Source: Candidatus Omnitrophota bacterium (GTDB taxonomy: Bacteria > Omnitrophota > Gorgyraeia > Zapsychrales > Fredricksoniimonadaceae). From it: DNA of 64,000 bases. Positions within the stretch are counted from its first letter, which is position 1, and the number at the start of each line of letters is the position of its first letter. The DNA lies in contig JBGAJA010000001.1 of NCBI GenBank assembly GCA_044225175.1, forward strand, positions 742,711-806,710, written 5' to 3'. The notes below the pieces were generated by a model. It saw nothing but the letters and a program-made list of their open reading frames with translations, searched no databases and was not told the origin of the DNA. Shown here one piece after another: positions 4,753-64,000 of the stretch. The position numbers were made by a program, and so were the translations under genes.

Positions 4753-4759
4753 TATTACA

Positions 4760-4778
4760 CAGCTTTTCTAGCATCGTC
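4760..4778. repeat. 19-bp direct repeat flanking IS, right copy (cagcttttctagcatcgtc)
   Basis: Matches 3339-3357 with one mismatch. It sits 8 bp outside the right IS terminus. Confidence 0.6.
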
Positions 4779-4806
4779 GAATAGATTCTACTGCCCTATT
4801 TTAATA

Positions 4807-4841
4807 AGAAAGCCCCTAGTACATATACAAGGGGCTTTCTT
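4807..4841 (-). terminator. Putative rho-independent terminator downstream of the N/Q-rich protein gene
   Basis: Perfect 12-bp stem AAGAAAGCCCCT / AGGGGCTTTCTT with an ~11-nt loop. On the minus strand it is followed by the A/U-rich tract UUAUUAAAAUA. Confidence 0.5.
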
Positions 4842-4865
4842 AACACTACAGGAGAATCAATGAGA

Positions 4866-5675: not shown

Positions 5676-5768
5676 ATTACCCTCCTTATTAAATAAGATT
5701 ATTCTTACTTAAGCACATTTTAGAGGACTGCTAATGAAGAGAAGATGAAAAGAAAATTAAAAAATGGA

Positions 5769-31065: not shown

Positions 31066-33693
31066 TTAGCTTAAAGGAATATCCAAGAAGGTTTGTGGAC
31101 TTGCAAGTGGAACAATGCGAAGAATCATTGGCTCAATTCCTAAGAAATCCTCACCTTGAAATTGAGCCGTAAAGGCTGGAAATTTCATCTCAATATTTTT
31201 ACCTTCTTTAACAACATCTAATTCCATATTCTTTGAGCTCAAATCAACACCACCAGGATTATTAATCTTGGCAGCTTTTGAATGACTCATAGCAAAATCT
31301 ACTTTCTTACTAAAACCTTCGGGATACTGGGTTACCCCATCTTCTTCTTTTAAAATAATCTGATAAGTATTTCCTGATATTCTCTTATGGCTCAAATATT
31401 TCTCAACCAACTCTGCGAGCTCATCAAGTTTACTATTTAAATCATCAATCTCTACAAAATCATTCCACAGATCATGGGTTAAATTGTTAACTATGGAAGT
31501 CTTTATTCTATTTCTTAGTATTACCCTCTCAGCTTCTCCTATTGGTGGAGCCGTAAATCTAGAGCCTTTCAAAGATTCCGCAATACTATGAGGGTCATAT
31601 GTATCAATCCTCTCAAGCAATAATGAAATTATGTGTTGAACATCAGTCATTGACAAATTTCTTGATAAATCAAGGTTAAAATCACCAGCACCAAGAGGAC
31701 GAATAGTCAATAGATTAAGGGCTTCAAGAATATCGTCGTCTTTTACAAAGGGGAACGCACGTTTCAAGAATTTTCCAAGTTGTTCTTTAACATTTGATTT
31801 AGACATCAGCGGACTCATAGAAAAAAATTCTTTATGAGCTATATTAGCCAAAACAATACTTCTAATTTCTGCAGGGATGTCTGTACTTAGAATATAATTA
31901 GAATCTGTCTTAAAATTGATCGTATGCTTTAGTTTTTCTTGGATTCTAAAGCCCTCTATAGCTGAGCGGATGATCGTCAATATGGGGAGTTTTATGTTAC
32001 CATTGTTATTAAACAATCTTTCTCTGATAAGATTTGCTTCATCCTGAGTTTGATTCTCAAATAATCGATATCTATTATTCTGCATTTGATCAACCTTCTG
32101 CACTAAACGATCAAATAAATTACTATTTTTATAAAAGATCTTTTCTAAAAGCGGCAATCCTTCCTTATCAAGATAATCCGGGTTTTCAAAAGCCTCACGA
32201 AACAACCTGCCGATTACATCTCCTTTCTTAGCAAAACGTATAAATTGTTGAAAATCATAGAATGAAACATTTGAATTCATCGCAAAATCTTTAGATTTGT
32301 TATGTACTCTTGCCATATAGACACTAGCCATAGCCAAATCTCCATTGGCCCCCAGACTATCTTGAGAGGACGCCGTTGAAACACGCTGTAGTACATTCGG
32401 AATCCCCAAGTCTTGAGCTATGCCCCCTGAGAAGTACTTCCTAGAAATTCGCTGGTCTCGGGTTGATTCTAGATCTTCTTTGATGTAGTTAAATACGCCT
32501 TTTTTGTAGGCTTGGAGGTATTGATGGTAGATGGTTTCAACGTCAGATGGTGGGTTCCTCTGGGTCGCTTTCAGTTTCAACCCTGAGTCGCTTGGCAATG
32601 TGCTTGGGGACACGTTCCTGTTGATTTTGACCTGAACATGTCCCCTGGTCGGCGTTGTATAACCAATTCCTTCAATTTTCTTCTTATCTGCATACACCTG
32701 ATTCAATAATGTATTCTTAAGGGTTTGTTTGTACCATGTGGCTAGGATCATGGAATAGAACATTTGGCGCAAGGGGGCGAAGTTTTGGCCTTGGTTGACC
32801 TCGTTTTCTAATTCGGGCAATATGATGTCGCGGATGATTTGGTTTGCTAAGGCGTTGGGGGTGTTTCCCTGGGGTGCTTTCGCATTCAGCGCTGTCTCGC
32901 TTGGCAGCATGCTTGGGGACACGTTCTTATTGGTTTTGTAATGAACATGTCCCCTGGTTGGCGTTTGATTTTTTTCATTAGCTAGATAATCTTCCTCCAA
33001 CATCACCTTCAAATGCGCTCCAACGATATACCCTACGTTATTCCTCTCAAGAACCTTGGCTTTATCGGCTACGATCCATACTTTATTGAATGTATTCACA
33101 GGAATTTGGGTATTACCATAAAGGGCTTGGGCCTTTGCATAAACCTTGTCCCAGAATTTCTTGCCTAGGTCTTTCTCAGGATAAATTAGAGAAGCGGTTA
33201 ATTGTTTGAGGATGTAATCTTGGGCCAGCATGTCTCGGCCTAGCTCGGTGTTCCCTAGTTCTTCAGGAACTATTCTGTCTTTCTCATAGGGGGATAAATT
33301 CACCCAGAGGTCTTTTTCGGGGATAGTTAATGAGGCTAGGAAATATTTGATTAATTTGTTTGATTCGTCTTGTAGGGGTGACCCTTGCGGTCGCCCTTTT
33401 TGGACAGGGGCGAGCCCTGCCACTACGGACAATCCAGAATTCCCTGTATCCACGACGAAATCAAATAACAAAGGATTCTCTGGATGGACTTTCAGGCCTT
33501 TGATCATGACAGGCATATAGGCCTGGCTCAAAGACATCATTTCTCCAGGCACAGGCAATTGTAGGGGCGAGGTTCCCTCGCCCTTAATAGGCCTGGGAAA
33601 CCCAGCCCCTACATCAGCCCAAGTAGAGCGTGGCCCCAAAATGCCTGTAATTATGAAGCACAGGAGAATAACAACAGATGTCATTTTTTTCAT
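31066..33693 (-). CDS. Secreted protein (875 aa), paralogous to the N- and C-terminal modules of the 2991-aa giant protein
   Basis: Signal peptide MKKMTSVVILLCFIITGILGPRSTWA. N-terminal ~400 aa align with the giant protein (e.g. LIKYFLASLT(I/T)PE(K/A)DLWVNLSPYEK(D/N)RIVPE...NTFNKVWIV...LKVMLEEDY). The C-terminal ~70 aa are also related. Confidence 0.8.
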   Translation of the reverse strand: MKKMTSVVILLCFIITGILGPRSTWADVGAGFPRPIKGEGTSPLQLPVPGEMMSLSQAYMPVMIKGLKVHPENPLLFDFVVDTGNSGLSVVAGLAPVQKGRPQGSPLQDESNKLIKYFLASLTIPEKDLWVNLSPYEKDRIVPEELGNTELGRDMLAQDYILKQLTASLIYPEKDLGKKFWDKVYAKAQALYGNTQIPVNTFNKVWIVADKAKVLERNNVGYIVGAHLKVMLEEDYLANEKNQTPTRGHVHYKTNKNVSPSMLPSETALNAKAPQGNTPNALANQIIRDIILPELENEVNQGQNFAPLRQMFYSMILATWYKQTLKNTLLNQVYADKKKIEGIGYTTPTRGHVQVKINRNVSPSTLPSDSGLKLKATQRNPPSDVETIYHQYLQAYKKGVFNYIKEDLESTRDQRISRKYFSGGIAQDLGIPNVLQRVSTASSQDSLGANGDLAMASVYMARVHNKSKDFAMNSNVSFYDFQQFIRFAKKGDVIGRLFREAFENPDYLDKEGLPLLEKIFYKNSNLFDRLVQKVDQMQNNRYRLFENQTQDEANLIRERLFNNNGNIKLPILTIIRSAIEGFRIQEKLKHTINFKTDSNYILSTDIPAEIRSIVLANIAHKEFFSMSPLMSKSNVKEQLGKFLKRAFPFVKDDDILEALNLLTIRPLGAGDFNLDLSRNLSMTDVQHIISLLLERIDTYDPHSIAESLKGSRFTAPPIGEAERVILRNRIKTSIVNNLTHDLWNDFVEIDDLNSKLDELAELVEKYLSHKRISGNTYQIILKEEDGVTQYPEGFSKKVDFAMSHSKAAKINNPGGVDLSSKNMELDVVKEGKNIEMKFPAFTAQFQGEDFLGIEPMILRIVPLASPQTFLDIPLS
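32552..32656. repeat. ~105-bp direct repeat, copy A, inside the 875-aa paralog CDS, with internal inverted repeat GGGGACACGTTC...GAACATGTCCCC
   Basis: Near-identical to 32861-32966. Each copy encodes TPTRGHV..K.N.NVSPS.LPS. The internal ~12-bp inverted repeat could form a hairpin. Confidence 0.7.
32861..32966. repeat. ~105-bp direct repeat, copy B, inside the 875-aa paralog CDS
   Basis: See copy A. About 309 bp separates the copies. Confidence 0.7.
33371..33428. repeat. Double-hairpin palindromic element, degenerate copy P2, in-frame in the 875-aa paralog CDS
   Basis: TGTAGGGG-TGACCC-ttgc-GGTCGCCC-tttttgga-CAGGG-gcgag-CCCTG-CCACTACGG. Same termini and architecture as G1, with a degenerate 3' end. 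Encodes LAPVQKGRPQGSPLQDE. Confidence 0.55.
33560..33613. repeat. Double-hairpin palindromic element, copy P1, in-frame in the 875-aa paralog CDS
   Basis: TGTAGGGGC-GAGG-ttc-CCTC-GCCCTTAATAGG-CCTGGG-aaa-CCCAGC-CCCTACA. Encodes GAGFPRPIKGEGTSPLQLPV just after the signal peptide. Confidence 0.75.
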
Positions 33694-49947: not shown

Positions 49948-50217
49948 TCATCTATAAACATTTTTTCTGTGATCAATATCTACTATCATAATTAACAAGT
50001 AATTCTTTAATGGTTTATACAAAATTCTAATCACCCCTATTCGATAAGACCGAAGCCACTTGAATGGTCCACTCAAAAGTTTGCCGACTAAAGGATCCTT
50101 CGTAATAATATTTTCAAGTGTATCAAGGATATATTCTTTTAATTTCTTATCTTGAATGTTGTTAAACTTTTTAAGCGCTAGGGGATCCCATCTTATCAAA
50201 TAAATATTTTGTCTCAT
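49948..50217 (-). CDS. Type II toxin, RelE/ParE superfamily
   Basis: 89 aa, basic. 4-nt overlap with the upstream Phd/YefM antitoxin gene. RelE-like C-terminus (YRIGVIRILY...IVDIDHRKNVY). Confidence 0.7.
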   Translation of the reverse strand: MRQNIYLIRWDPLALKKFNNIQDKKLKEYILDTLENIITKDPLVGKLLSGPFKWLRSYRIGVIRILYKPLKNYLLIMIVDIDHRKNVYR

Positions 50218-50483
50218 ACTCTTTGAGGTCTTCCTATAGCTTTTTCAAATGAAACACCTTTGCCTTTATCTGCATCTTTCATACGTCTAATTAACTCTTT
50301 GGAATATTCTTTATCCTGAAGAATTTCGATCGTTTCAAGCATGCCTTCATAATCCTGCTGACTCATGATAACCCCATAAGGCTTACCATTAAGTGTCACT
50401 GAAAACACCTCTCCCAAATCATTAGATTTTCTTAACACGTCCAAAAACTGACTTTTAGCTTGAGTTACCGTCATCGTTTTCAT
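50214..50483 (-). CDS. Type II antitoxin, Phd/YefM family
   Basis: The likely start is MKTMTVTQAKSQFLDVL... (ATG at 50481-50483, AGGAGG 6 nt upstream). The track ORF extends to 50519 across the operator palindrome. Confidence 0.75.
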   Translation of the reverse strand: MKTMTVTQAKSQFLDVLRKSNDLGEVFSVTLNGKPYGVIMSQQDYEGMLETIEILQDKEYSKELIRRMKDADKGKGVSFEKAIGRPQRV

Positions 50484-50499
50484 GTCCTTCCTCCTGTAT

Positions 50500-50519
50500 A
50501 TGGTCATAATTATGACCAT
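50500..50519. promoter_or_regulatory. Perfect 20-bp palindrome ATGGTCATAATTATGACCAT in the TA promoter region (putative antitoxin operator)
   Basis: Exact dyad symmetry. Lies 17 bp upstream of the antitoxin start codon. Confidence 0.5.
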
Positions 50520-50837: not shown

Positions 50838-51110
50838 CTACTCTCTTTGTTCCTGATAAGCTTGTAAAACTTTCCTAACAATCTTCCCTTGGACAAATTT
50901 ATCCGAGCATTGGACCTTTTCATACCAACGTTCATTTTTTCCAAGTTGAGAAGGCATAGATACAAATAGCCCTTTATCACCATCAATGACTCGTAGACCT
51001 TTAATAATCAAAGCATCATTGACCGATAAATCCACAAAAGCCTTAAGACGATGGCCTTCGGGAAGTCGATGCATCTTAACTATTTTGAAATCTAAAAGAT
51101 CAGAAGACAT
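50838..51110 (-). CDS. spoVG: SpoVG family protein
   Basis: 90 aa. LIIKGLRVIDGDKGLFVSMPS matches the SpoVG core. Confidence 0.8.
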   Translation of the reverse strand: MSSDLLDFKIVKMHRLPEGHRLKAFVDLSVNDALIIKGLRVIDGDKGLFVSMPSQLGKNERWYEKVQCSDKFVQGKIVRKVLQAYQEQRE

Positions 51111-51121: not shown

Positions 51122-51364
51122 TTAGCTAGCTACTGGTGGATTAGAAACTACTGGTGCGGCTGGATAACATTTCCCACAAGGTTTAAGACCTTTTTTAGTT
51201 GCCTCTTCCATAGCAATGGGCTTGGCATTCTTTTTTTGAATCATTAAACAATCTTGCTTGTGATACTTCTTTCCATTCTTTGTTGCATACACATCTTCTG
51301 CAAAAGCAAATGTGGAACTAACTAGAACCATTGCAACCAACATCACTCCTAAAACCTTTTTCAT
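51122..51364 (-). CDS. Small exported Cys-containing protein (hypothetical)
   Basis: The likely start is MKKVLGVMLVAMVLVSSTFAFA (signal peptide), ATG at 51362-51364 with AAAGGAGAAG upstream. Mature part has C-x-...-PCGKC motifs. Confidence 0.55.
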   Translation of the reverse strand: MKKVLGVMLVAMVLVSSTFAFAEDVYATKNGKKYHKQDCLMIQKKNAKPIAMEEATKKGLKPCGKCYPAAPVVSNPPVAS

Positions 51365-51558
51365 AACTTCTCCTTTTGTTATAAATGTTAATTCAACTTT
51401 CGGAATCCTAATCATATTTTGATCTTTTGTCAAATATTATTTTAATCTAACATCAATTTTTGAGATCAAATCCAATTTATCGTCAAATAATATTGCATTT
51501 TAATCAAGATGTGGTAAGCTTGTGTAGTTCTAAAGATTTGTCAAAACAGGAGAGACAC

Positions 51559-52110
51559 ATGCTAATCGGAGATAAACTTCAAGAAATACGAAAAAAGAAA
51601 AAAATGACGCTCACTGAACTTTCTGAAAAAAGCGGCATTCAACTAGCCACCCTAAGCCGCATTGAAAACAAAAAAATGACTGGCACAATCGAATCCCACA
51701 TTGCAATCGCCAAGGCCCTTGAAATCGACGTAGTTGAGCTTTACAAATCCGTCATCCATCAAAATAAAGAAATTGAATTGATCCAGGCCCCTGAAACTTC
51801 AGAAGTTTTTACACATAATGACAAGTCTTCCTTTGAAATCCTCACCAAAAACGTTTTAAGTAAACATATGATGCCTACCTTAATACGCATTGAACAAGGC
51901 GGGGCAACTCAGCAGGAACAAGGAAAACCTAACAGCGAAAAGTTTATTTTTGTGTTGGAAGGCCCGATCGAAGTGGTTGTAGATACAAAGACCTTTATTC
52001 TTAAGAAAAACAACACGCTATATTTTGATGGTTCTCTACCCCACATATTTAAAAATACTTCAAAAAATACCGCTAAATTATTGTGCGTTGCAACCCCGGT
52101 TGCCCTATAA
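51559..52110 (+). CDS. XRE-family HTH plus cupin-domain transcriptional regulator
   Basis: Start MLIGDKLQEIRKKKKMTLTELSEKSG (AGGAGAG 7 nt upstream). The track ORF begins 33 codons earlier. N-terminal HTH_3-like region, C-terminal cupin beta-barrel region. Confidence 0.75.
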   Translation: MLIGDKLQEIRKKKKMTLTELSEKSGIQLATLSRIENKKMTGTIESHIAIAKALEIDVVELYKSVIHQNKEIELIQAPETSEVFTHNDKSSFEILTKNVLSKHMMPTLIRIEQGGATQQEQGKPNSEKFIFVLEGPIEVVVDTKTFILKKNNTLYFDGSLPHIFKNTSKNTAKLLCVATPVAL

Positions 52111-52128
52111 CTTATAAGGAGAAAGACA

Positions 52129-52488
52129 ATGAACCAAAAAATTTTAATCTGTGATGACGAAGAAAACATCCGTGAAACAATCAAACTAGTCCTGGGAGAT
52201 TTCTACGAACTCTTTCTGGTTGCAACCGGCGAACAAGCCCTCTACACCCTAGCCCACAATAAAGACATTAAATTGGCCCTTTTAGACATCAAAATGCCCA
52301 AAGTCAGCGGCCTTGATCTATTAAGTGAAATCAAAACCAAATACCCCGACATAAAAATCATCATGGTCACCGGCTACCGCTCCGTCGAGACAGCAGCCGA
52401 AGCTTCCAGACTCGGAGCCTCTGGATACCTGGTTAAACCGTTTAAATCGCATGATATTTTGGAGACGGTGAGAAAGAATTTAGGCTAA
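52129..52488 (+). CDS. Single-domain response regulator (CheY-like receiver)
   Basis: 119 aa. ILICDDEENIRE, phospho-acceptor D in LALLDIKMP, conserved T (MVTG) and K (YLVKP). Confidence 0.85.
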   Translation: MNQKILICDDEENIRETIKLVLGDFYELFLVATGEQALYTLAHNKDIKLALLDIKMPKVSGLDLLSEIKTKYPDIKIIMVTGYRSVETAAEASRLGASGYLVKPFKSHDILETVRKNLG

Positions 52489-52495
52489 ATACTTA

Positions 52496-54088
52496 ATGAA
52501 TTTTAACCCATACACAATCCCACCAATTTTGTGTTTGTTACTGGCTGTTATATGTGGTGTTTTTGTTATTGGTCAGAATCCTAAAGCAAAACTAAATCAG
52601 ATTTTCTTATTTATATGCCTAACATTTATAGGCTGGTTCTCCTTTTACATCCCCTTTAATTTTCCATACTCAGAGCATCAAATATTAATTTGGACTAAAA
52701 TTTCTTTTTGTTTTATTTCTTTCATTCCTATAACGACTTTCACATTTATTTCCACTTATTTACAAATCCCTAAGAATGAATTCTGGTTTAGAATAAACTC
52801 ATTAATTGGATTAGTATTCTCTATATTAAGCCTAAGTACTGATTGGATTATTAAAGGAGTCTTGCATTTGCCTTGGCATCCTTATCCTGAGGCTGGCATT
52901 CTTCATCCACTACTAATATTACACTGCCTTTCCTTAGCTTATTGGGGGATAAAATTGACACTTATTACGCTAAAAGATAAATCCCTTTCTGATAAGCGGC
53001 GCAATCATATCAAATACATGTTTATCGCCATGATTGCATTAACACCTGGAGCCATTGACTTTCTAGGAAATTATAATATTCAAGTTTACCAAATCGGATA
53101 TATACCGGTATCTGCTTATTTATTAATAACGACAATCGCCATCATTAAATATCAATTAATGGACATTCAGATTATATTAAAGAAAAGTCTTCTTTATACA
53201 ATTTTGATTGCCGTTATTGCCCTGTTCTATTTTCTTTCCATTTATGTGGCTGAACATGCTCTACAGAATATCTTTAAATATCAGTCTATTTTTATTTCTC
53301 TATTCTTCGCCACTATTATTGCTATTGTCTTTATTCCGATTAAAAACTTTCTAGAAAAGCATCTGTTTAATAAAAGTTTAGGGATGATTGCCGAAGAAAA
53401 TGATCTTTTAAGAGTGGAAGTTGCTCAAACTGAAAAATTCAAAATGGTAGCCAATCTGGCCAGTAGCATTGCCCATGAAATCAAAAATCCCCTGACTGCC
53501 CTTCAAACTTTTAATGAATATTTACCTCAAAAAAAGAATGATCCAGAGTTTTTTGATAAATACCAAACCATCGTATCGCAAGAGCTCAATCGTATTAATG
53601 GTTTAGCACAAGAACTTTTAGCTTTTGCCAAGCCTTGCCCCCCTCAAATCCAACAAGTCAATCCCAACGAAATCATTACTCAAATCATCCAATTAGTTCA
53701 TCAGAAATGCTCTGCAAATAAAATCAATATTGAAACTAAGCTAGAGGCCCATAACCTTATATCAGCCGACCCCAATCAACTCAAACAAGCATTGCTTAAT
53801 ATTATCCTGAACGCCATTGATGCCATGCCTGATGGAGGCATATTAACTATTTCTACCAGTGTCATTGCGAGCGAAGCGAAGCAATCTTTTACTATTAGCA
53901 TCTCCGACACCGGCTCCGGCATCTTCCCTAAAGATTTACCTCATATCTTTGAACCGTTTTATACAGGAAAAGAAAAAGGCACAGGATTAGGACTTGCAAT
54001 TACTCAAGGGATTGTTGAGAAACATGGCGGGAAAATATTCGTAGAAAGCAAAATTAACCAAGGCACAACATTTACTATAAAACTATGA
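52496..54088 (+). CDS. Sensor histidine kinase 1 of tandem array (multi-TM N-terminal sensor + HisKA + HATPase_c)
   Basis: 530 aa. ~6-7 TMs, H-box [14 protein letters not shown] boxes ([25 protein letters not shown]). 4-nt overlap with next HK. Confidence 0.85.
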
Positions 54089-55674
54089 CACCATTTGCGC
54101 TTTCAGGACTCTTAATTGTGATCACTCATTTAAGTATGGGCACATTTCTACTAATAAAAAATTTTCATAATCCCATTAATCGACTGTATTCATATTTTAC
54201 TTTTGTAGTAGTAATCTGGGGATTAGCAGCTTTCAAAATCGGTACTATTCAAAATTTAGAATCTGCCATCTTATGGTGGAAAATAGGTCATATAGGTATA
54301 ATTTTCGTTCCTATTATGTTTCTTCAATTTGTTTATAGATTTATTGAACAGAAAAATCAAATCTTAATAGTTAGTATTTTTACTGTAACTATTTTCTTTT
54401 TAGCCACCCTTTTTTCCGGACATTTATTAAATACACCGGAATTTATTTTCAATTCATTCTATTACAATGCACACCCCAATCTTTTATACAAAATATTTAC
54501 TACTCTTTGGTTAATGGCTATTATTTTTAGTCATTGCCTTTTATACAAACAGTTAAGAAAAGTTTCCAAGATTAAACAGAATCAAATTAAATATTTCTTC
54601 TTAGCAATAATAATTGGATATACCGGTAGCATCACTAACTTTTTACCCGTATTTGGTATAAATCTTTACCCTTATGGAAATTTTACAATCGTTATTTATC
54701 CAATAATTATGACCTACGCCATTTTGAAATATCAACTAATGGATATAAATATTGTTATCAGAAAAAGTCTTATTTATTCTTCCTTAGTAACAGTTATTAC
54801 ACTGATCTTTTTAACCTCCGTATTAATTTCAGAAAGAATATTCCATCATTTTTTTCAATACAAAGATTTATTTACTTCCATTTTGACTGCTGGTCTTATT
54901 GCTTTAATATTTATTCCCTTAAAGAATGTGATCCAAAACTTTATAGATCATTTATTCTTTAAAGGAACAACGATTGAAATAGCCCAACAAAACGAACAAT
55001 TACGTCACGAAATAGCCCAGACAGAAAAATATAAAATAGCAGCAGCTTTATCCAGCGGAATTGCTCACGAAATCAAAAATCCTTTAACTTCCCTGTCCGT
55101 CTTTACCGAATATCTTCCTGACAAGAAAAATGATCCCGCCTTTCTTGAACAATATCAAAAGATTGCCCAACAAGAAATCGGCCTCATTAACAGCCTTTTA
55201 CAAGAATTACTAGACTTTGCTAAACCCTGCGCACCTCAAATGCAACAGACCAATCTTAATGAGGTCATCACACAAGTCATTCAATTGGTCAGAAAAAAAT
55301 GTGAACAGTCAAAAGTTCTTATTGAAACCTCACTCCAAGCTGATAAAGATCTATCTGCAGACCCAAATCAACTCAAACAAGCCCTGCTAAATTTGATACT
55401 TAATGGTATGGATGCCATGCCTAATGGTGGCACATTAACTATAACCACAGTGATATCATCACAGCACATAATCACCATTTCCGACACCGGCTCTGGAATC
55501 GCCGCCAAAGACCTCCCTCACATTTTTGAGCCCTTTTATACAAAGAAAGAAAAAGGCACTGGATTAGGACTAGCTATTACTCAAGGCATTGTAGAAAAAC
55601 ATGGTGGAAAATTAGAAGTCGAAAGCAAATTAAACCAAGGGTCTACATTTAGGATAACTTTAAAAGTAATATGA
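54085..55674 (+). CDS. Sensor histidine kinase 2 of tandem array
   Basis: 529 aa. Same architecture, H-box [12 protein letters not shown]. Paralogous to HK1, HK3 and HK4. Confidence 0.85.
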
Positions 55675-57266
55675 ACTATTTTAGCATTACTGCGATTTTA
55701 AATTCATTAACAAGCGCCTTGGCATGTATCTTTATACTTTTAAACAATACAACAACTAAAACAAATCAATATTTTGCTCTGTTTGCATTTGCTGTATCTA
55801 TATGGGCGTTCTTTTTTCGAGTATACGCTTCAAATGAAGCTTCACAGGAAGAAGCATTATTAGCTATGCGAATAGCTATTGGGGTCGCCATCTTTATCCC
55901 AACTCTCTTCTTACATTTTGCAACACACTTAATCAATGAAAATGGTAAGCATCTAAATACATTGCGCTTATTATATTTATTTACTTGTATTATAGCCTTA
56001 ACAGCATTCTCTCCACTATTCATTAAAGATGCTAAACAATATTTGCTTTTTAAATATTGGCCTGAGCCTGGTCCAACTTATATTTTCCACACTCTTAATT
56101 ACGTATTTGTTCCACTTCTAGGTTTTAAAATTTTATATTCAAAAATTAAAATAACAGCAGGACATAAACAAAAACAATTAAAGTTAGTATTTTGGGGAGT
56201 TCTTCTAGCCTATCTTGGAGGATTAACAAATTTTCCACTGTCATATAACTTCCCTTTACTGCCAATAGGCAACGTATTCGTTTCTTTCTATATAGCTTTT
56301 ATTACATATGCGATCTTTAAATACCAATTAATGGATATTAATATCATTCTTAAAAAAAGCTTAATTTATACAATTTTAATTTCAATAATTACTGTCTTTT
56401 ATTTAATTCTTATTTATCTTACCGAACATATCATTCAATCTTTATTGGGGTATAAGTCTCTACTCGTATCCATTATATCAGCTACTGGCATTGCATTAGC
56501 TTTCATACCTTTAAAAAACTTTGTTCAGGATTTTGTAGAAAAGTCTTTCTTTAGCGGATCATATACTAAAATTTCTGAAGAGAATGATCTATTAAGGGAT
56601 GAAGTTGCTCAAACTGAAAAATTTAAAGTAATTGCTAATCTAGCTAGCAATATTGCTCATGAGATAAAGAACCCCCTCACTGCCCTCAAAACTTTTAATG
56701 AATATTTACCTCAAAAAAAGAATGATCCTGAATTCTTTAACAAATACCAAACTATTGTCGCTCAAGAATTGGAACGTATTAATAACTTAGCACAAGAGCT
56801 ATTAGCTTTTGCTAAACCGTGCCCGCCACAAATGCAGCAAATTAATCCTAATGATGTCATTAACCAAGTCCTTCATTTGGTTCAACAAAAGTGTACAGTT
56901 AATAAAATCGACATTGAGACTGAATTTAAAGGTAATATCCATTTAGATGCGGATCCTAATCAGCTTAAACAAGCTTTATTGAATTTGATTCTAAACTCCC
57001 TTGATGCGATGTCTAATGGTGGAATCTTAAGAATCTCCACCAAAACTCAAAATATACATTACACAATCGACATTTTAGATACGGGCTGCGGAATTGATCC
57101 CAAAAACCTCCCACACATATTTGAGCCCTTTTATACTAAAAAAGAAAAAGGAACAGGGCTAGGCCTTGCCATTACGCAGGGAATTGTTGAAAAACATGGC
57201 GGGAAATTAACAGTAGAAAGCAAATTAAACCAAGGAACCACATTTAGAATAATCTTACCGATATGA
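55671..57266 (+). CDS. Sensor histidine kinase 3 of tandem array
   Basis: 531 aa. The kinase core is near-identical to HK1 (e.g. AEENDLLR[V/D]EVAQTEKFK..., [15 protein letters not shown]). Confidence 0.85.
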
Positions 57267-58870
57267 CATTCTTTATTATTACCAGCTTTATCAACGCTTT
57301 ATCTTCTGGATTTTGTTGTTTATTTATTCTCTTGAATAATATTAAATCTAAACCTGCTAAATCGTTTGCAATATTCTTTTGTTTCGTAGCTCTGTGGTCT
57401 TTCTTTTATTTCTTAAGCATGCTTGCCACGGAATATAACGAAGCGATTTTCTATTCAAGAGCTTTAAATACACTAGCACTATTTATCCCTCCAGCTTTCT
57501 TAAAATTTTGTATTGAATATACAAATGAAAAAAACTTGTTATTTAGAAGAATATTATTTCTTTTCTTCATCATTGATCTAGCTATCCTACCTTTTGTTAA
57601 TACTCCATACTTTATTGTAACTATGAAGCATGTTCTATTCTTTAAATTCTGGCCTCAAGCAGGCATACTCTTTCACATTTCTTTTATACAATACATGATT
57701 ATCATTCCTATTTCACTCCATCTTCTAAGGAAAAAACTAATTCAATCGACTAGACAAAATTCTCACCAACTAAAAATTTTAGTTTATTCTTTATTAATTG
57801 GATTTCTAGGAGGAGGAACAAATTATTGCCTTTGTTTAAATATTCCCATTGCACCCTATGGAAACCTACTAGTGTGCGTCATTGCTTTTGGTTTTCTTTA
57901 TTTGGTTTTTAAATATCAAATTATGGACCTGAAAATAACTCTTTCCAGAGGTCTTGCATATACCATACTAATTTTTCTTATCACTTTATCCTACTTTACA
58001 ACCACCTACATAACAGATTCTTACTTACAAAGACTCACGGGTTATAAATCTTTTCTTTTTTCATTTTTAATCGCCACAATTACTGCTTTAGCTTTTGTGC
58101 CTTTGAGAAATTACCTTCAAAACTTAATAGACAAGTTCTTCTTTAAAAAGTCGATACAGGAAGTGGAAGAAGAAAATCTTTTTCTAAGGCAAGAAATAAC
58201 CCAGTCAGACCGTCTTAAATCTATAGCTATACTAGCAAGTGGCATGGCCCATGAAATCAAGAATCCTCTCACCGTTCTTAAAACCTTCACTGAATACTTG
58301 CCCAAAAAAATGGACGACAAAGAATTCTTAAAAAAGTTTACTCCTATGGTTGCCGAGGAAGTTACCCGTATTGATAATTTGGTGCATGAACTTCTTGATT
58401 TTGCTAAGCCTGCTTCTCCTGTTCTTAAACCACTTAAAATCAAAGAGCATGTTCAAAGCACCCTAGATCTTTTGAGCAATGAGTACATTAAACACAATAT
58501 CAAAACAACTACGGATTTTCTTTTACCGGCTGATACCACAGTCATGCTTGATCCAAATCAAATTAGACAAGCTCTCTTAAACATACTTCTTAATGCCATT
58601 GATGCTATGCCAACAGGTGGACAATTAAATATAGGAATATATAGCTCTTCTGAGGGTACGATTAACATTAAAATCCAAGATTCAGGGCCAGGAATTGACC
58701 CTAAGGATTTGCCTCATATTTTTGATCCATTTTATTCCAAAAAAGACAATGGAACTGGCTTAGGCCTTGCCATTACTTATGAAATTGTTCGAAATCACGG
58801 TGGGAAGATTTTTGTGGAAAGCTCTAAAGGTAAAGGTGCGGCGTTTGTGCTGGAATTTCCTTCTATCTAA
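57263..58870 (+). CDS. Sensor histidine kinase 4 of tandem array
   Basis: 535 aa. More divergent paralog. H-box [12 protein letters not shown]. Same TM-sensor layout including the conserved KYQ(I/L)MD(I/L) amphipathic linker. Confidence 0.85.
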   Translation: MTFFIITSFINALSSGFCCLFILLNNIKSKPAKSFAIFFCFVALWSFFYFLSMLATEYNEAIFYSRALNTLALFIPPAFLKFCIEYTNEKNLLFRRILFLFFIIDLAILPFVNTPYFIVTMKHVLFFKFWPQAGILFHISFIQYMIIIPISLHLLRKKLIQSTRQNSHQLKILVYSLLIGFLGGGTNYCLCLNIPIAPYGNLLVCVIAFGFLYLVFKYQIMDLKITLSRGLAYTILIFLITLSYFTTTYITDSYLQRLTGYKSFLFSFLIATITALAFVPLRNYLQNLIDKFFFKKSIQEVEEENLFLRQEITQSDRLKSIAILASGMAHEIKNPLTVLKTFTEYLPKKMDDKEFLKKFTPMVAEEVTRIDNLVHELLDFAKPASPVLKPLKIKEHVQSTLDLLSNEYIKHNIKTTTDFLLPADTTVMLDPNQIRQALLNILLNAIDAMPTGGQLNIGIYSSSEGTINIKIQDSGPGIDPKDLPHIFDPFYSKKDNGTGLGLAITYEIVRNHGGKIFVESSKGKGAAFVLEFPSI

Positions 58871-60054
58871 AGCTCACCCTTTTTAAATAATTCTACTAGG
58901 GCAGCAACTGGCATTGGATTAAACTGGGCACCCTTGCAATTCTGAATCTCAATCATGGCCTGATCTTTACTCAAACCCTTACGATAGGAACGATCTGTTG
59001 TCATTGCATCAAAGGCATCGGCAACAGCAATGATCGAGGCAACTAAAGGTATTTCATCTCCCTTTAATCCTTCTGGATAACCTTTTCCATCATAACGCTC
59101 ATGATGATATTTAACTCCATTAATACACTCTTTGAAGCCTGTTAGAGGGGCCAAAATTTCTGCACCTCTGGTTGTATGGGTCTTCATGATTTCGTATTCT
59201 TCAGCAGTTAATTTGTCTTGTTTGCTTAAGATAGCTTCTGGTATGGCAATTTTTCCAATATCATGCAAGAGCCCAGAAATATAAAGATTTTCAAAAAACT
59301 TAGGCGGAAATTCAGATAATCCTGAAGCTTCCATTTGCCTGGCTATGGCTAAAGAATATTTAGTCACACGCTCCGTATGACCATGAATGTAGGCATCTTT
59401 GGCTTCGATGGCTGAAGCTAAGGCAATGGTTGTTTGAATGAAAAGATTGCGATTTCGCTCAGCTTCGCGTTTTAAATCTTCAAAAAGCTGGGCATTACGA
59501 ATGGCCATGGCCACATCAGAAGCTAAGGCTGAAAAGAAATCTAGCTCCTCCTGTTCAAATCTCTCCCCATCATATTTTGGTCCAAGAATTAAAATCGCCA
59601 TTAACGCATGCTGATGATAGGCTGGCACACAGGCAACCGCATTAAGCTTTGGCATGATCGTACTTACATCATGCAACAATTGTTTAGTCCCATTGCCGTT
59701 TGAAATAATACTTTCTTTCCAAAGCAATTTATTAATATCTTCACTTAAAATAGCATTACGGCCGGCAACCAAATATTTATGTTCCTTCTCTATAAAAAGA
59801 CGAATTAAAGGACTTTTTTTATCAAAACGTACAAAACCTTCAGGAATTTTTGATCCCGGCTGACCTTTAGAGATGGACATAATATAAACATCCTTTTGAG
59901 TGTCATGAAGAATCATGCCGGCATGCTCAAGATGGACTTTATGGACAATGGAACGGACAATAAGTTTAATGAGAAGTTTAGGGTCATGAATGAGAATCAT
60001 GCCCTTGGAAGCGGATTCAAGCTCTTTTTTATAGTCAATCTTAACTGAGGCCAT
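58867..60054 (-). CDS. HD-GYP domain phosphodiesterase with N-terminal GAF-like domain
   Basis: 395 aa. HD motif LLHDIGKIAIPE and HHERYDGKGYP (HD-GYP signature). Confidence 0.85.
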   Translation of the reverse strand: MASVKIDYKKELESASKGMILIHDPKLLIKLIVRSIVHKVHLEHAGMILHDTQKDVYIMSISKGQPGSKIPEGFVRFDKKSPLIRLFIEKEHKYLVAGRNAILSEDINKLLWKESIISNGNGTKQLLHDVSTIMPKLNAVACVPAYHQHALMAILILGPKYDGERFEQEELDFFSALASDVAMAIRNAQLFEDLKREAERNRNLFIQTTIALASAIEAKDAYIHGHTERVTKYSLAIARQMEASGLSEFPPKFFENLYISGLLHDIGKIAIPEAILSKQDKLTAEEYEIMKTHTTRGAEILAPLTGFKECINGVKYHHERYDGKGYPEGLKGDEIPLVASIIAVADAFDAMTTDRSYRKGLSKDQAMIEIQNCKGAQFNPMPVAALVELFKKGEL

Positions 60055-60416
60055 TATTTTTTATTTAATTCAGATAGGACAATTTGTTCAAGCTCTTCAA
60101 GCACTAACGGTTTGTGGATAAACCCGACTACACCTAATGCTTTAGTTTCCTTAATAGTTTCTTCATCTTCAACACCGGAAACCATGATGATCTTTGTTGA
60201 TTGGTCTTTTTTTCGAAGCTCTTTGAGGACTTCCACACCAGTCATTTGCTCCATGCGCACATCTAATAACACTAAATCAGGCTTTTCCATCAAAATAATC
60301 TCCAAAGCTTCTGCTCCACCGCTTGCCGTAAAAACTTCAATATTTCGTTTCTTAAAATAACTTTTAGCAAATTCTCTGATGTCAATTTCATCATCTACAA
60401 TCAATAACTTAGACAT
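60054..60416 (-). CDS. Single-domain response regulator (receiver)
   Basis: The likely start is MSKLLIVDDEIDIRE (AAGGAGG 9 nt upstream). The track ORF starts 6 codons earlier. Phospho-acceptor D in LVLLDVRM. Confidence 0.8.
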   Translation of the reverse strand: MSKLLIVDDEIDIREFAKSYFKKRNIEVFTASGGAEALEIILMEKPDLVLLDVRMEQMTGVEVLKELRKKDQSTKIIMVSGVEDEETIKETKALGVVGFIHKPLVLEELEQIVLSELNKK

Positions 60417-62577
60417 TAGATTGACCTCCTTCAAAACTCAAAGGTAACAAAAGCTTCATTTGAGTTCCCTGCATGTATTTCGACGAGAACTCAACCTTCC
60501 CTTTGTGATTATCTTCAATGATCTTTCGAATCACATAAAGCCCCAATCCAGTTCCTTTTTTACTTGAAAGCTTAGTTGTAAAAAATGGCGTAAAAAGCTT
60601 GGTTGAATCTTCATCCTTGACTCCAATACCATTATCTTCAAAAATCATTTCAAGATTTTCACCTTGTATCTTGGCATAAATATTCAAAATAGGATGATAA
60701 CCTTCTTCTTTAAGATCATTCTTACGCTGCATCATCGCATCATAACCATTATCAATAAGATTAAAGAAGACTTCCTGAAGCTGCGTCGAATTCCCCTTAA
60801 CCTTTGGCAAAGTATTTATATCATACTTTCGAACCAATGACATTTGAGAAGTTTTAATTTTAAATTGCGCCATTTCATAAGCATTAGAAATAACCGCATC
60901 CACGTCAGTTGGAACAAAACCATCCTGACCCTTTCGAGTATATCTTAAAAGACCTTGAACAACTTCCCCACCCTGCTTCACATTATCCTGAACTCTATTA
61001 AACGCTCTTTCGAGATCTTTAAGAACATCTTTGATTTTATCCGTCATCTCTAGATGTTTAGACAAATTAATTGTATCCAAAGCATCCCCCGCAATAAATC
61101 CAAGCGCATGAAATCGATTATTAATCTGATGAGAAAGACCATCCGCCATGGTCCCAATAGTCGCCATCTTTTCAGCTTGAAAAAGCTGCTGTTGAGTAAT
61201 TTTCATATCTTCATAAAATTTAGCATTTTCAATAGCTAAAGCTGCTTGACTGGCAAGAATAGTAAATACAGCTAAATCATCTTCTGAAAAAAGTTTACCA
61301 CTTTCCTTTTTGCCCATAGCTACAAAAGCAAATAGCCGACTATCTATATAAATTGGAACTATTAAAGCCGCTTTTACTTCTTCAATCTCATTTTCAACTG
61401 AAGTCAACATAGGATCTTTATAATCCAAAGCTTTTTGTTTAATCTCTTCAAAAATAATAGAATTATGATGTTCCTTTAAATAAGATATCAAAAATGATTT
61501 TTCAGAAATTTGAGCAATAAAGGAACTCCGAGAACTTCGAAGCTTTAGTGCTCCTAGCTTATATATCTTCTTAGGTTCATCGTAAATATAAATAACACTA
61601 TGTTCCAGACGGACTGAACGGGTTAAAATAAATACAATTAAATTAAGTAATTTTTTTAAATCTTTAATTCTGCCCATACCTGCCGAGGCTTTTCGTAAGG
61701 TAGCTTGATATGATTTTTGTTCTTTAAGGAGTCGGTCTTCTGCACGTTTTTGGATGTAAAAATAAATAAATGGCCCCGCAACTGCAAACCAACCCATCAT
61801 ACCCATAGGTATTAGCCATAACCCTTTTCCTAACAATTGAAAGCCGACCCAAATTGGAATACCTAGAATTAAAGTATAAACAAAAATAAAAATAGCTACT
61901 CTCGTAACAACAATTTTAATATCTAAAACTTGATATCGGAAAAGAGCATATGTTTGTATTGCTGCATAAACACAAACAAAAAAATGCCAACCAGGATAAA
62001 AATTTATTCCATATGAAGGAATTGCCGTAGTTGCACCACTAACAAACCCTATCAACATCCCATAAATAAGATACTCACATTGTATACGTTTTAGCCCTTT
62101 TGAATTTATCCACTGTTGATATAAATGGACAAAAGCTTTTACAACGATAAGAATCCAAAGAAAGAAGAAAGAATTGAAAGCAATGTTCGCCTTGAAATAA
62201 TAAAATTGTCCAAATTTAAATTCTAAGTCATGTACAACTGTCGTCGTTAAAATGGAGGCAAGAAAAAACAAAGCACCATGTAAATGAGTCAAACGTAAGA
62301 ATAACTTATCTTTAAGGCCACAAAATTCATGGACAGTGTGATAGAAAAAAACTGCTATATAAGCAATACCACAAAAGGATATTTGCCAACTAAAAAAAGC
62401 GTCATTGTAATTACGAGAAACTCCAACTAAAAAAGTGCCAAAACCAAATACTGCAATAGCAGCATTCATAAAACCCCATACTAAATGTAATCTTCTTTTT
62501 GTATTTATGAAAATTATAAAAGCCAGCAAAGAACTGGCTATACCTAGTGATAAACTGGCTAAGACAAATAAATTCAT
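60409..62577 (-). CDS. Sensor histidine kinase with multi-TM sensor + GAF + HisKA + HATPase_c (fifth paralog of the N-terminal sensor type)
   Basis: 722 aa. N-terminal TM bundle ends in RYQVLDIKIVVTR (same motif as the 4 tandem HKs). H-box LSHQINNRFHAL. HATPase motifs (DNGIGV, GTGLGL). Confidence 0.8.
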   Translation of the reverse strand: MNLFVLASLSLGIASSLLAFIIFINTKRRLHLVWGFMNAAIAVFGFGTFLVGVSRNYNDAFFSWQISFCGIAYIAVFFYHTVHEFCGLKDKLFLRLTHLHGALFFLASILTTTVVHDLEFKFGQFYYFKANIAFNSFFFLWILIVVKAFVHLYQQWINSKGLKRIQCEYLIYGMLIGFVSGATTAIPSYGINFYPGWHFFVCVYAAIQTYALFRYQVLDIKIVVTRVAIFIFVYTLILGIPIWVGFQLLGKGLWLIPMGMMGWFAVAGPFIYFYIQKRAEDRLLKEQKSYQATLRKASAGMGRIKDLKKLLNLIVFILTRSVRLEHSVIYIYDEPKKIYKLGALKLRSSRSSFIAQISEKSFLISYLKEHHNSIIFEEIKQKALDYKDPMLTSVENEIEEVKAALIVPIYIDSRLFAFVAMGKKESGKLFSEDDLAVFTILASQAALAIENAKFYEDMKITQQQLFQAEKMATIGTMADGLSHQINNRFHALGFIAGDALDTINLSKHLEMTDKIKDVLKDLERAFNRVQDNVKQGGEVVQGLLRYTRKGQDGFVPTDVDAVISNAYEMAQFKIKTSQMSLVRKYDINTLPKVKGNSTQLQEVFFNLIDNGYDAMMQRKNDLKEEGYHPILNIYAKIQGENLEMIFEDNGIGVKDEDSTKLFTPFFTTKLSSKKGTGLGLYVIRKIIEDNHKGKVEFSSKYMQGTQMKLLLPLSFEGGQSNV

Positions 62578-64000
62578 ATTTTAAGATTTTGCATTAGTTT
62601 AATAAAATTAGTTGGTGTTTTTAAGGGTATGATTTCATTATTTAGAATTGAAACAAATAAAACCTTTTGTCTTGCAGAAGCAAGTTTCTTTATCTTTTTT
62701 CCTTTTTCTGTTTTACTAAATTCAAAATATACTTCCACTCCATTTTCAAAAACTCGATCAATAAACATTTCAACCAATATTTGATCAAAAGGAAAAGCTT
62801 CATTATAGAAATCGATAGAACAGTGAGAACAAAATATTTCTTTTTGCCCTGAATAGTCTTTGTAGAAATCTGGCGAACAAGAATGAAAATACTCATCAGA
62901 TAATTGACCAATCCACTTAGCAAAACTTGCAAAATAAATATTAGAAAGTAAATTTGAGTTTTCAAGAGTAGCAGTTACTAGCTTTTCAAAAACTTTGAAT
63001 TTATTTGGCAAATGAGATCTAAAGATACTTAATTCATCTCCTGAGTAAAAACTAAAGGGTTTGTTATCTTTTAAATTTGGCACCTTTACTCTAGTCGTCT
63101 TAGGACCCATTAAATTTACAAATTGATTCACATAAGATGGGTATTCATCGATCTCTGTTTTACCATCCTGATGGATTTTAATCCAAATTGTGTCCTGCCT
63201 ACAATCAGCTACTTTATATATTCTTTCCCTATTAATTACACTCCACTCATAGTACATATTCATAGTCGATTTCTTATCGCCTTTTACCCCATCCATCCAT
63301 AATTTACCTTCAAGAATATCTCCGATTTGGACCGGATTATAAACATCTAAACTAGTCATTTTAGTAACCATGGATGTTGTACCTATTTTTGCTGTATCTA
63401 AAAATTTCTTAGATATCGGAAAAATACTGTATTCCCTTAAAGTTCCACAAAAATCAAAGTAATTAGTAAAGTAAACATTCTTACTTAACAATTGATTATG
63501 TTTAAATGTTACTGGAAAGTGACATTTAAAAACTAATTGATCTTGAGGACCTTTATAATCAGCATCTACTCCACACAAATCCTTTAACGAAAAACCCAAA
63601 CTTTCAAGCGAATCAAAAGAAATCTTTTCTTGAAGATTTTTATTTTGTTGTTCAATTTTCTGAACATTAGCAATAAAGGTAACTATTTTTTTTCTACCTC
63701 TAGTTAATTCTATTATTCCTGATATGATTCTTTGCTCTTTTCCCAACAGTCTTGACAAAAACAAATAATTACCATTATGTGTTTTTTCATATGTGATTTC
63801 ATCTTGATCTTTTCCTAAAGCCTTATAAATAGTTTCAACAATCGACCAAGCGCATGTACCAGCAATATTAAGCTCTACTCCAATACTAAGTAATTGTTCT
63901 AATATTGATCTTGCTGTTACATTTAATAGCGCTTGCCAGACATCAATATCCCGTTCTTGAATATCTTCAATATCAATTCCTTGTACTGTATTTCCTAAAG
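62574..64000 (-). CDS. Hypothetical protein; 5' end (N-terminus) lies beyond the window
   Basis: The ORF-track start at 63764 is a TTG. The same frame stays open upstream to the window edge (...GTCAWSIVETIYKALGKDQDEITYEKTHNGNYLFLSRLLGKEQ...). The gene therefore begins outside the window. No confident domain call. Confidence 0.5.
   Translation of the reverse strand, partial: LGNTVQGIDIEDIQERDIDVWQALLNVTARSILEQLLSIGVELNIAGTCAWSIVETIYKALGKDQDEITYEKTHNGNYLFLSRLLGKEQRIISGIIELTRGRKKIVTFIANVQKIEQQNKNLQEKISFDSLESLGFSLKDLCGVDADYKGPQDQLVFKCHFPVTFKHNQLLSKNVYFTNYFDFCGTLREYSIFPISKKFLDTAKIGTTSMVTKMTSLDVYNPVQIGDILEGKLWMDGVKGDKKSTMNMYYEWSVINRERIYKVADCRQDTIWIKIHQDGKTEIDEYPSYVNQFVNLMGPKTTRVKVPNLKDNKPFSFYSGDELSIFRSHLPNKFKVFEKLVTATLENSNLLSNIYFASFAKWIGQLSDEYFHSCSPDFYKDYSGQKEIFCSHCSIDFYNEAFPFDQILVEMFIDRVFENGVEVYFEFSKTEKGKKIKKLASARQKVLFVSILNNEIIPLKTPTNFIKLMQNLKI

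Follow-up and report, generated by a model that had tools for sequence, protein, structure and literature searches.

A conserved two-operon signalling island of Omnitrophota with an apparently mosaic array of tandem 7TM sensor kinases

We analyzed a signalling island at positions 51559–62577 of a 64-kb stretch of DNA from a Candidatus Omnitrophota bacterium (contig JBGAJA010000001.1). The whole stretch is called the window here, and coordinates are window positions unless another locus is named. The island is a conserved Omnitrophota signalling unit of two convergent operons. The first operon consists of an XRE-type helix-turn-helix (HTH)/cupin regulator, a stand-alone receiver (RR1) and tandem, translationally coupled histidine kinases with nine transmembrane (TM) helices. 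The second consists of a lipid/polyketide enzyme gene, the kinase HK5, a second stand-alone receiver (RR2) and a GAF-HD-GYP phosphodiesterase. No member of the Omnitrophota has been cultured; many of these bacteria are very small and may depend on a host, and to our knowledge there is no experimental knowledge of their signalling.

The open reading frame (ORF) map agreed with an initial annotation, made from the sequence alone, on every gene that the annotation had listed, including coordinates and strands. The first operon is encoded on the forward strand. It starts with the HTH-cupin regulator (183 amino acids (aa), 51559–52110; Pfam HTH_3, 1.6e-9, and Cupin_2, 5e-12). The start at 51559 is correct, as the orthologues are 182–183 aa long and do not support the longer ORF that begins with TTG at 51460. 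RR1 (119 aa, 52129–52488; Response_reg, 1e-25) is followed by HK1 (52496–54088), HK2 (54085–55674), HK3 (55671–57266) and HK4 (57263–58870). These four kinases have 529–535 aa, close to the ~530 aa first noted, and lie head-to-tail at a spacing of ~1592 nucleotides (nt), with ATGA start/stop overlaps at the junctions. The second operon is encoded on the reverse strand. It comprises the C-terminal part of a polyketide synthase (PKS)-like gene with a 4HBT_2 thioesterase domain (62574–64000, cut by the window edge; 4HBT_2, 5e-8), HK5 (722 aa, 60409–62577), RR2 (120 aa from the ATG, 60054–60416; Response_reg, 9e-29) and the GAF-HD-GYP phosphodiesterase (395 aa, 58867–60054; HD_5, 6.5e-36). The PKS-like gene overlaps the HK5 start by ATGA and the RR2 stop overlaps the HD-GYP start (TAATG). 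The GAF-HD-GYP gene converges with HK4, and their stop regions share 4 nt.

Related loci were found by scanning genomes and metagenomes with the single-copy HD-GYP gene as an anchor, and from the contigs of individual homologues. The homologues are nearly all metagenomic, and the named ones belong to Candidatus Omnitrophota/Omnitrophica. About 30 loci have the same order: SpoVG, a small secreted protein, the HTH-cupin regulator, RR1 and a variable number of kinases, which are met convergently by HD-GYP, RR2, HK5 and lipid genes. Relatives usually hold one tandem kinase (L003–L005, L083, L087 and L092–L094), which is the single copy that the initial annotation had considered for them. The number ranges from none (L002, and L007 with a STAS-like gene in that place) through two (L001, L090 and L110/L111) to at least four (the window, the JGI 3300050046 contig, L107 and L108). 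The closest relative is L001, in which HD-GYP is 90%, RR1 81%, the HTH-cupin regulator 77%, RR2 75% and HK5 62% identical to the window protein; the array kinases are only 52–65% identical. An assembly artefact was ruled out, because numerous assemblies made independently share the architecture, and the divergence between the paralogues is too great for collapse or mis-joining. The STAS/anti-sigma-antagonist-like ORF of L007 (115 aa, 7723–8070, reverse strand) lies between RR1 and HD-GYP. Some relatives, such as L096, also have orphan HisKA_7TM kinases outside the array.

Pfam identified HisKA and HATPase_c domains in HK1–HK4 and HATPase_c and GAF domains in HK5 (HATPase_c, 1e-19 to 1e-27). 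The TM domains, for which the initial annotation had named other candidate families, match a known sensor domain, HisKA_7TM (PF16927), in all five kinases. The scores of HK2, HK3, HK4 and HK5 are 51.4, 56.6, 64.1 and 38.5 bits, respectively, at a gathering threshold of 28.6 bits. The HK1 score (24.7 bits) is below this threshold, and the HK1 sensor sits in a clade of 100% bootstrap (with L003, L004, P0068 and others) among proteins that bear the PF16927 label. HisKA_7TM has been described before as a sensor domain of bacterial and haloarchaeal kinases (PMC5847659); here, the bundle is followed by two additional TM helices that lead straight into the dimerization and histidine phosphotransfer (DHp) domain. 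In an AlphaFold (AF2) model of HK3 residues 1–305 (pLDDT 91.6, pTM 0.84), seven TM helices, with a β-hairpin between TM4 and TM5, precede two more TM helices that run into the DHp. The kinases had been described as sharing a bundle of six to seven TM helices that ends in a KYQ motif. The motif is present (KYQLMDI in HK1–HK3, KYQIMDL in HK4 and RYQVLDI in HK5) and its general form, K/RYQ(L/I/V)(M/L)D(I/L), is the C-terminal end of the PF16927 model; the helix count was revised to nine, as seen in the HK3 model. If the kinase is cytoplasmic, a count of nine TM helices would place the N-terminus and the hairpin on the outer side of the membrane. Neither a HAMP nor a PAS domain was found in the array kinases by Pfam or in the model. 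The best Foldseek matches in the PDB were generic G-protein-coupled receptor bundles (E of at least 1e-3, TM-score ~0.45); neither a solved structure nor a ligand was found for the HisKA_7TM family.

The phospho-accepting histidine is present in the H-boxes of HK1–HK4 (AHEIKNPL) and HK5 (SHQINN). The ATPase motifs DTGxGI, FEPFYT and GTGLGL are present in the alignment, and the kinase cores are AtoS/ZraS-like (NCBIfam). HK5 combines HisKA_7TM, GAF, a variant DHp with the SHQINN box and HATPase_c (Pfam/NCBIfam), and is single-copy in all syntenic loci (45–67% identical). The membrane-embedded sensors of these kinases probably detect differing membrane or hydrophobic cues. Far from the island, a soluble kinase-like ORF of 237 aa (2480–3193, reverse strand) has a HATPase_c domain only and matches HK3 in phmmer (E=8e-22); it adjoins a tRNA gene at 3212–3285.

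To compare the two halves of the kinases, we set one module boundary at the KYQLMDI motif and the other 25 residues ahead of the H-box, both taken from the alignment. The sensors of HK1–HK4 are mutually 24–36% identical (HK1–HK3, 24–28%). The cores of HK1–HK3 are ~67–76% identical to each other (HK2 to HK1 or HK3, ~68–70%), and the HK4 core is 48–50% identical to them. The initial annotation had described divergent sensors on near-identical kinase cores, HK1 and HK3 being nearly identical, and had read this as sensor diversification. Divergent sensors and much more similar cores were indeed found. The HK1 and HK3 cores, however, are 76% identical in aa and 73% in nt (the DHp segment alone, 90%), and the proposed history of the sensors did not hold either. 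Each sensor has orthologues in other genomes: L003, L004 and P0068 for HK1 (62–65% identity), P0051 and L005 for HK2 (50–58%), P0007 and L001_HKa for HK3 (41–48%), and P0021 and L001_HKb for HK4 (56–57%). We refer to these sensors as types A, B, C and D. Types A and B occur together in six arrays and types C and D in four, and the order in the window is A-B-C-D.

The cores behave differently from the sensors, because the DHp-CA cores cluster by genome. In L001, the cores of HKa and HKb are 89% identical (DHp, 97%) despite different sensor types. When the 114 sequences were ranked by core similarity, the array partner often came first in the 24 same-array pairs (up to 94% identity); by sensor similarity, it came about 100th. 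Same-array pairs lay above the background 95th percentile in 12 of 22 cases (binomial p ~1e-10, an approximate figure since the pairs are not fully independent). Neighbour-joining (NJ) trees of the two modules were discordant, with 100% bootstrap for the sensor clades A and D and 86–100% for genome-specific core pairs. Thus, the comparison of sensor and kinase phylogenies that the initial annotation had proposed came out in favour of domain shuffling.

Three-sequence informative-site tests placed breakpoints at residues ~281–339, the TM9/DHp junction (Fisher p 1e-17 to 1e-30). The breakpoint of HK1 was at residue ~214–218 (p=4.5e-30), that of HK2 at ~315 (p=2.9e-19) and that of HK3 at ~306 (p=1.6e-18). 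The sensor and the TM8–9 segment of HK3 follow L001_HKa (72% in the mid segment), and its core follows HK1. The HK4 triplet gave no breakpoint (p=0.07) and served as an internal negative control. In L001, identity steps from ~50% to 83–100% at residue ~310, and the core has a synonymous divergence (dS) of 1.03 against a saturated dS of the sensor. As judged from these comparisons, the array kinases have four sensor types of ancient origin, one per kinase, which are conserved across genomes, and the cytoplasmic transmitter halves appear to have been exchanged between array members at the TM9/DHp junction or the KYQLMDI motif. HK1–HK3 share one core class (class I) by exchange, and HK4 keeps the core class of the closest relative L001 (class II). 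Accordingly, HK1 is of type A with core class I (Pfam, module trees and breakpoint test), HK2 of type B with class I and HK3 of type C with class I (both by Pfam, module comparison and breakpoint test, HK3 also by the AlphaFold model), and HK4 of type D with class II, a non-mosaic orthologue of L001_HKb.

The four kinases had been thought to have obviously arisen by tandem duplication, their sensors diverging afterwards. In its strict form, this means a recent duplication in this lineage, after which the sensors diverged fast under relaxed or positive selection and the cores stayed near-identical. The head-to-tail arrangement with its even ~1592-nt spacing and ATGA overlaps would fit, as would HK1–HK3 cores of 68–76% identity beside sensors of 24–28%. 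However, the nearest relatives of each sensor lie in other genomes and not in the array itself (orthologues of 41–65% identity), and the cores cluster genome by genome. Even the similar cores are saturated at synonymous sites and hence not recent. The sensors are under purifying selection relative to their orthologues, with a proportion of nonsynonymous differences (pN) of 0.22–0.32 and saturated synonymous differences (pS). For HK1 against L003/L004, pN is 0.22–0.24 for the sensor and 0.30–0.31 for the core. Furthermore, the HK1 core is closer to the HK3 core than to the cores of its sensor orthologues (58% nt identity, pN 0.30). We therefore consider a recent duplication very improbable, and attribute the core similarity to exchange of transmitter halves between array members.

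A second way to explain similar cores within a genome is convergence by co-evolution with RR1, in which no recombination is involved. In its favour, only one receiver stands in the operon with the kinases, and the DHp specificity region is their most similar part (90% for HK1/HK3 and 97% for L001 HKa/HKb). Nevertheless, 55–92 partner-supporting sites per comparison span the whole CA domain and go beyond the few DHp contacts. Convergence at the protein level cannot produce the L001 core dS of 1.03 against a saturated sensor, and helix 1 of RR1 hardly differs between genomes with different core classes. Co-evolution as the sole cause thus has only a very small chance of being right.

For the exchange of transmitter halves, the simplest reading is that an A-B pair with core class I was joined to a C-D pair with core class II, and that the type-C gene HK3 then received an HK1-like transmitter. 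Such chimeras would result from events at the conserved junction, either non-allelic gene conversion or unequal crossing-over, and the latter would also account for the copy-number variation from zero to at least four. Synonymous sites are saturated in all modules of the window, so that the dS test of gene conversion was uninformative there and informative only for L001. No identity above 83% was seen among the longest DNA repeats of the array. Together with the saturation, this indicates that exchange in the window is ancient, with no sign of ongoing conversion. The opposite mosaic was observed in the pair P0036/P0039 of L108 and in the pair P0044/P0075 of a 41763-nt contig (sensors 81% and 45%, cores 61% and 53% identical, respectively); hence, exchange or duplication does not always concern the core half.

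Our literature search found nothing relevant on gene conversion or concerted evolution of histidine kinases. Alm, Huang and Arkin (2006) report lineage-specific expansion of histidine kinases with domain shuffling (PMC1630713). As in their study, kinase domains group within a genome, and the closest paralogue of a kinase has a different N-terminal sensory part. The island differs in three respects: the shuffled modules are subtypes of one sensor family rather than different domain types, the paralogues stand in tandem in one operon and are not dispersed orphans, and the breakpoints map to one conserved junction, with sensor types that recur in the arrays of many genomes.

RR1 and RR2 each consist of a single Response_reg domain and stand alone, as first described. 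Alignment to CheY found the DD, D, T/S and K residues all kept, and the phospho-acceptor residues are complete in both. The best NCBIfam matches are NtrC-family receivers (AtoC, NtrX, ZraR and LuxO). When the DHp residues were compared with the receivers, as the initial annotation had envisaged, DHp helix 1 after the histidine was near-invariant in HK1–HK4 and the L001 kinases across both core classes, and RR1 helix 1 was nearly identical between the window and L001. The specificity residues of HK5 and RR2 differ from those of HK1–HK4 and RR1, and are themselves conserved. Read by the established rules of kinase-receiver specificity, these residues suggest two insulated pathways, from HK1–HK4 to RR1 and from HK5 to RR2. 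In L089 (4177 nt), the RR2 and HD-GYP genes occur downstream of HK5 as two tandem copies of the whole pair. Given this joint duplication and the stop-start overlap of the two genes, the pair looks like a split RpfG-type regulator. RR1 may act on the HTH-cupin protein of its operon or on the HD-GYP enzyme. The view that the island does not work through a classical DNA-binding response regulator agrees with the 64-kb window, which contains no other receiver and no DNA-binding response regulator; a classical DNA-binding response regulator was not found in the ~30 syntenic loci either.

The HD-GYP protein had been taken for a single-domain enzyme. We found that residues 8–195 form a GAF domain paralogous to the HK5 GAF (31% identity, E=2e-17). 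The motifs HGHTERV, LLHDIGK, HHERYDGKGYPEGL and VADAFDAMTTDRSYR align to the structures 5Z7C and 4MCW with all catalytic motifs intact, and the HD, HHE..GYP and D motifs are likewise intact in the alignment to 4R8Z. Both 4MCW and 4R8Z are specific for cyclic di-GMP (c-di-GMP). PmGH of Persephonella marina (PDB 4MCW) has the same two-domain layout of GAF-like and HD-GYP domains (E=4e-30); the alignment spans the end of the GAF and the whole HD-GYP, and the metal-binding and GYP motifs are conserved. Unlike PmGH, the enzyme here is translationally coupled to a stand-alone receiver in a kinase operon, and its top PDB match is V-cGAP3 (5Z7C), which is specific for cyclic GMP-AMP (cGAMP). A c-di-GMP output remains plausible.

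The frame of the thioesterase ORF at 62574–63764, next to HK5, is open to the window edge at 64000, and this ORF is the tail of a larger PKS-like gene. Over 393 aa, the fragment shares 30% identity with the C-terminal end of a KR-DH-4HBT protein in L001, and full KS-AT-ACP-KR-DH-4HBT megasynthases stand at this position in L006, L082 and L093. The gene upstream of HK5 is lipid/polyketide-related in most readable loci, the exception being L007 with a 694-aa ORF without a Pfam match. It is a PKS-like megasynthase in the window, L001, L006, L082 and L093, and a FAR-type reductase in L088 and L092, the latter also with plsX-fabH-fabD-fabF. L002 has an AfsA-like hotdog protein and FadL, L090 a ketosynthase (KS) and a methyltransferase, L110 a 3-hydroxyacyl-CoA dehydrogenase-like gene and FadL, and the JGI 3300050046 contig a thioesterase, ACP, FadL, FabD and FabH. 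The ATGA overlap with HK5 is found in the window, L001 and L006. In two loci, an N-terminal PilZ domain is fused to the enzyme directly upstream of the HK5 orthologue: to a 4HBT_2 thioesterase in L085 (6717–7448, forward strand) and to a methyltransferase in L083 (734–2104, forward strand). The RxxxR and DxSxxG c-di-GMP-binding motifs of the L085 PilZ are intact. These fusions are circumstantial evidence that the second messenger may be c-di-GMP and its target the neighbouring pathway.

Taken together, the explanation we favour combines the two-operon anatomy, mosaic evolution of the kinases and a lipid-linked signalling function, and as a whole we consider it fairly probable. In this explanation, HK1–HK4 would converge on RR1 in a many-to-one manner and HK5 would phosphorylate RR2. 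RR2 would control the adjacent GAF-HD-GYP enzyme, like an RpfG split in two. The enzyme would lower c-di-GMP or a related cyclic dinucleotide, which in turn would affect the neighbouring lipid/polyketide pathway.

Several points weigh against this explanation. Concerning mosaic evolution, the trees were bootstrapped NJ trees with a simple distance correction and not maximum-likelihood trees; given the saturated synonymous sites and the low identity of the DNA repeats noted above, core exchange in the window is deduced only from protein-level phylogenetic discordance. Concerning the wiring, RR1 is retained without any tandem kinase in L002 and L007 and thus cannot depend only on the array, and AtoS/ZraS-like cores together with NtrC-family receivers make a sigma-54 activator partner elsewhere in the genome possible. 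Among solved structures, the HD-GYP domain is most similar to an enzyme specific for 3'3'-cGAMP, so that its substrate may not be c-di-GMP. Concerning the lipid link, PilZ was not found in the visible 474 aa of the window PKS-like gene, and the upstream lipid genes of distant relatives form the housekeeping plsX-fabH-fabD-fabF cluster. Conserved gene order alone may account for some of the lipid association.

The points on wiring lead to an alternative in which the array kinases signal to regulators elsewhere, for example NtrC-type sigma-54 activators, with RR1 and RR2 as phosphate sinks or connectors. The AtoS/ZraS-like cores, receivers nearest to AtoC, NtrX, ZraR and LuxO, retention of RR1 in loci without a tandem kinase and the orphan HisKA_7TM kinases of relatives would all suit it. 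Against it, no such regulator is present in the window or the ~30 syntenic loci, RR1 is linked to the array, and RR2 to HD-GYP, by operon structure and translational coupling, and the conservation of DHp helix 1 points to a single common partner. We regard this alternative as unlikely. Another alternative is that the proximity of lipid/polyketide genes is inherited gene order and that the c-di-GMP output of the island is something unrelated, for example adhesion, motility or a switch of lifestyle. The housekeeping cluster of distant relatives supports it, and so do SpoVG, toxin-antitoxin genes and other neighbours, which are also syntenic and have no obvious functional link. Yet the lipid theme persists while the upstream gene varies (PKS, thioesterase, FAR-type reductase, AfsA-like hotdog, methyltransferase, FadL), 4-nt overlaps couple this gene to HK5, and PilZ is fused to the upstream enzyme in two loci. 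Inherited order is a possibility to be taken seriously, though on balance we doubt it.

Under the favoured lipid-linked explanation, the closest known logic is that of the Rpf/DSF system of Xanthomonas, with the fatty-acid signal synthase RpfF, the multi-TM sensor kinase RpfC and the REC-HD-GYP protein RpfG (PMC5391125, PMC3749722). Both systems have one or more lipid-metabolism genes beside a polytopic sensor kinase, a receiver domain and an HD-GYP phosphodiesterase, and a route from a hydrophobic cue through kinase and receiver to c-di-GMP hydrolysis would fit both. The differences are as follows. The receiver (RR2) and HD-GYP are separate genes here, with a GAF instead of a REC domain in the enzyme, in place of the fused RpfG type. 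HK1–HK5 end in HATPase_c, and Pfam finds neither the REC nor the HPt of an RpfC-type hybrid kinase. No enoyl-CoA hydratase (the RpfF crotonase) was found among the scanned upstream genes (PKS, thioesterase, KS, FAR, AfsA-hotdog, methyltransferase), the window itself ending inside the upstream gene. By analogy, the island may work like Rpf without being a member, the resemblance being one of logic only.

The sporulation kinases KinA–E, which act on Spo0F, form a many-to-one network. Networks in which many kinases act on one regulator are also described for GacS/RetS (PMC5992135). Similarly, the island has several kinases with different inputs, similar transmitter specificity regions and one stand-alone receiver; unlike those networks, its kinases are tandem paralogues in one operon, and their convergence on RR1 is inferred.

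A bolder proposal is that the island is the receptor arm of a lipid-based circuit in Omnitrophota, akin to quorum or host sensing, in a closed loop of five steps. A hydrophobic molecule derived from PKS or fatty acid synthase would enter through FadL-type porins where present, and a panel of 7TM receptors would read it within the membrane. Sensor cassettes would be swapped onto a locally homogenised transmitter, so that new sensors stay wired to the same receiver. The output would pass through the split REC and GAF-HD-GYP enzyme to c-di-GMP, which would gate the PilZ-fused thioesterase or methyltransferase steps of the same pathway and close the feedback loop. We offer this circuit as speculation and think it quite unlikely to be correct in full.

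The HTH-cupin regulator is 50–77% identical across the syntenic loci. It is PuuR-like, yet its score of 55.9 bits is far from the NCBIfam PuuR equivalog cut-off of 211 bits, and it shares with PuuR only the domain architecture HTH_3 and Cupin_2. Divergent from it lies the gene of a small secreted, cysteine-rich protein with a signal peptide and the motif YHK..C...PCGKC (51122–51364, reverse strand). Its likely start is the ATG at 51364 (the ORF as listed in the map runs on to a TTG at 51433), its orthologues have 90–96 aa in most syntenic loci, and Pfam gave no match. A small protein with the motif YHK..C...PCxxC is kept in L001–L003, L007, L090 and L092, where its gene in each case diverges from that of the HTH-cupin regulator and SpoVG comes next. 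The SpoVG homologue of the window (50838–51110, reverse strand) is the left-hand neighbour of the island and has the same position in L001–L005, L007, L083, L090, L092 and L110. It is adjoined by two small overlapping ORFs of 89 and 101 aa (49948–50519, reverse strand); the equivalent pair in L001 is annotated as ParE toxin and Phd/YefM antitoxin, and L110 has a PemK toxin there.

The divergent intergenic region contains a conserved box, TTGATCTTTTGTCAA (51419–51433, forward strand), with TTGA/TCAA inverted half-sites. The box TTGATnnTTTGTCAA has the same position in 8/8 aligned loci with diverged flanks; it occurs once in the window, which by itself is not more than chance. Further TTGA/TCAA repeats upstream of the HTH-cupin gene are conserved in 8/8 loci as well. 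About 40 nt upstream of the HTH-cupin start, a promoter-like element (51493–51520, forward strand) consists of TTGCAT, a 16-nt spacer and TAAGCT; the columns TTG, TG and TA..CT are conserved across the 8 loci. From this conservation, the region is a candidate operator for autoregulation of the HTH-cupin gene and control of the divergent small-protein and SpoVG genes. In the promoter and terminator scan, match counts were not above those of shuffled controls. Rfam detected no riboswitch or other RNA element in the island, and only two tRNAs elsewhere in the window.

Other parts of the window were also recorded. Two large ORFs on the reverse strand have no Pfam match: one of 2991 aa at 17572–26547 (none at E<=1e-4) and one of 875 aa at 31066–33693. 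Giant genes of unknown function are reported for Omnitrophota in a preprint (bioRxiv 10.1101/2023.11.21.568195). L001 has a toxin-like giant gene of more than 2655 aa (1–7377, reverse strand; SpvB, TcdB_toxin_midN and RHS repeats) a few kb from the island, and this gene is absent from the equivalent side of the window. A complete three-domain LigD (3'-phosphoesterase, ATP-dependent ligase and primase-polymerase; 5769–8285, reverse strand) points to a capacity for repair of the non-homologous end joining type.

The gene families, and kinase expansion with domain shuffling, are already known, and current understanding is not overturned. The new details are the conserved Omnitrophota island, the mapped recombination junction and the link to lipid genes and PilZ. 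The island would be one of the conserved sensory hubs of Omnitrophota. It may serve as a natural example of how inputs are added without rewiring, in which recombination at a defined junction has joined old sensor modules to a transmitter that they share. Either the TM9/DHp boundary or the KYQLMDI motif may thus offer a ready design rule for chimeric 7TM sensor kinases, and the recurrent coupling of lipid/polyketide genes and PilZ would be a concrete lead to the ligand class of HisKA_7TM.

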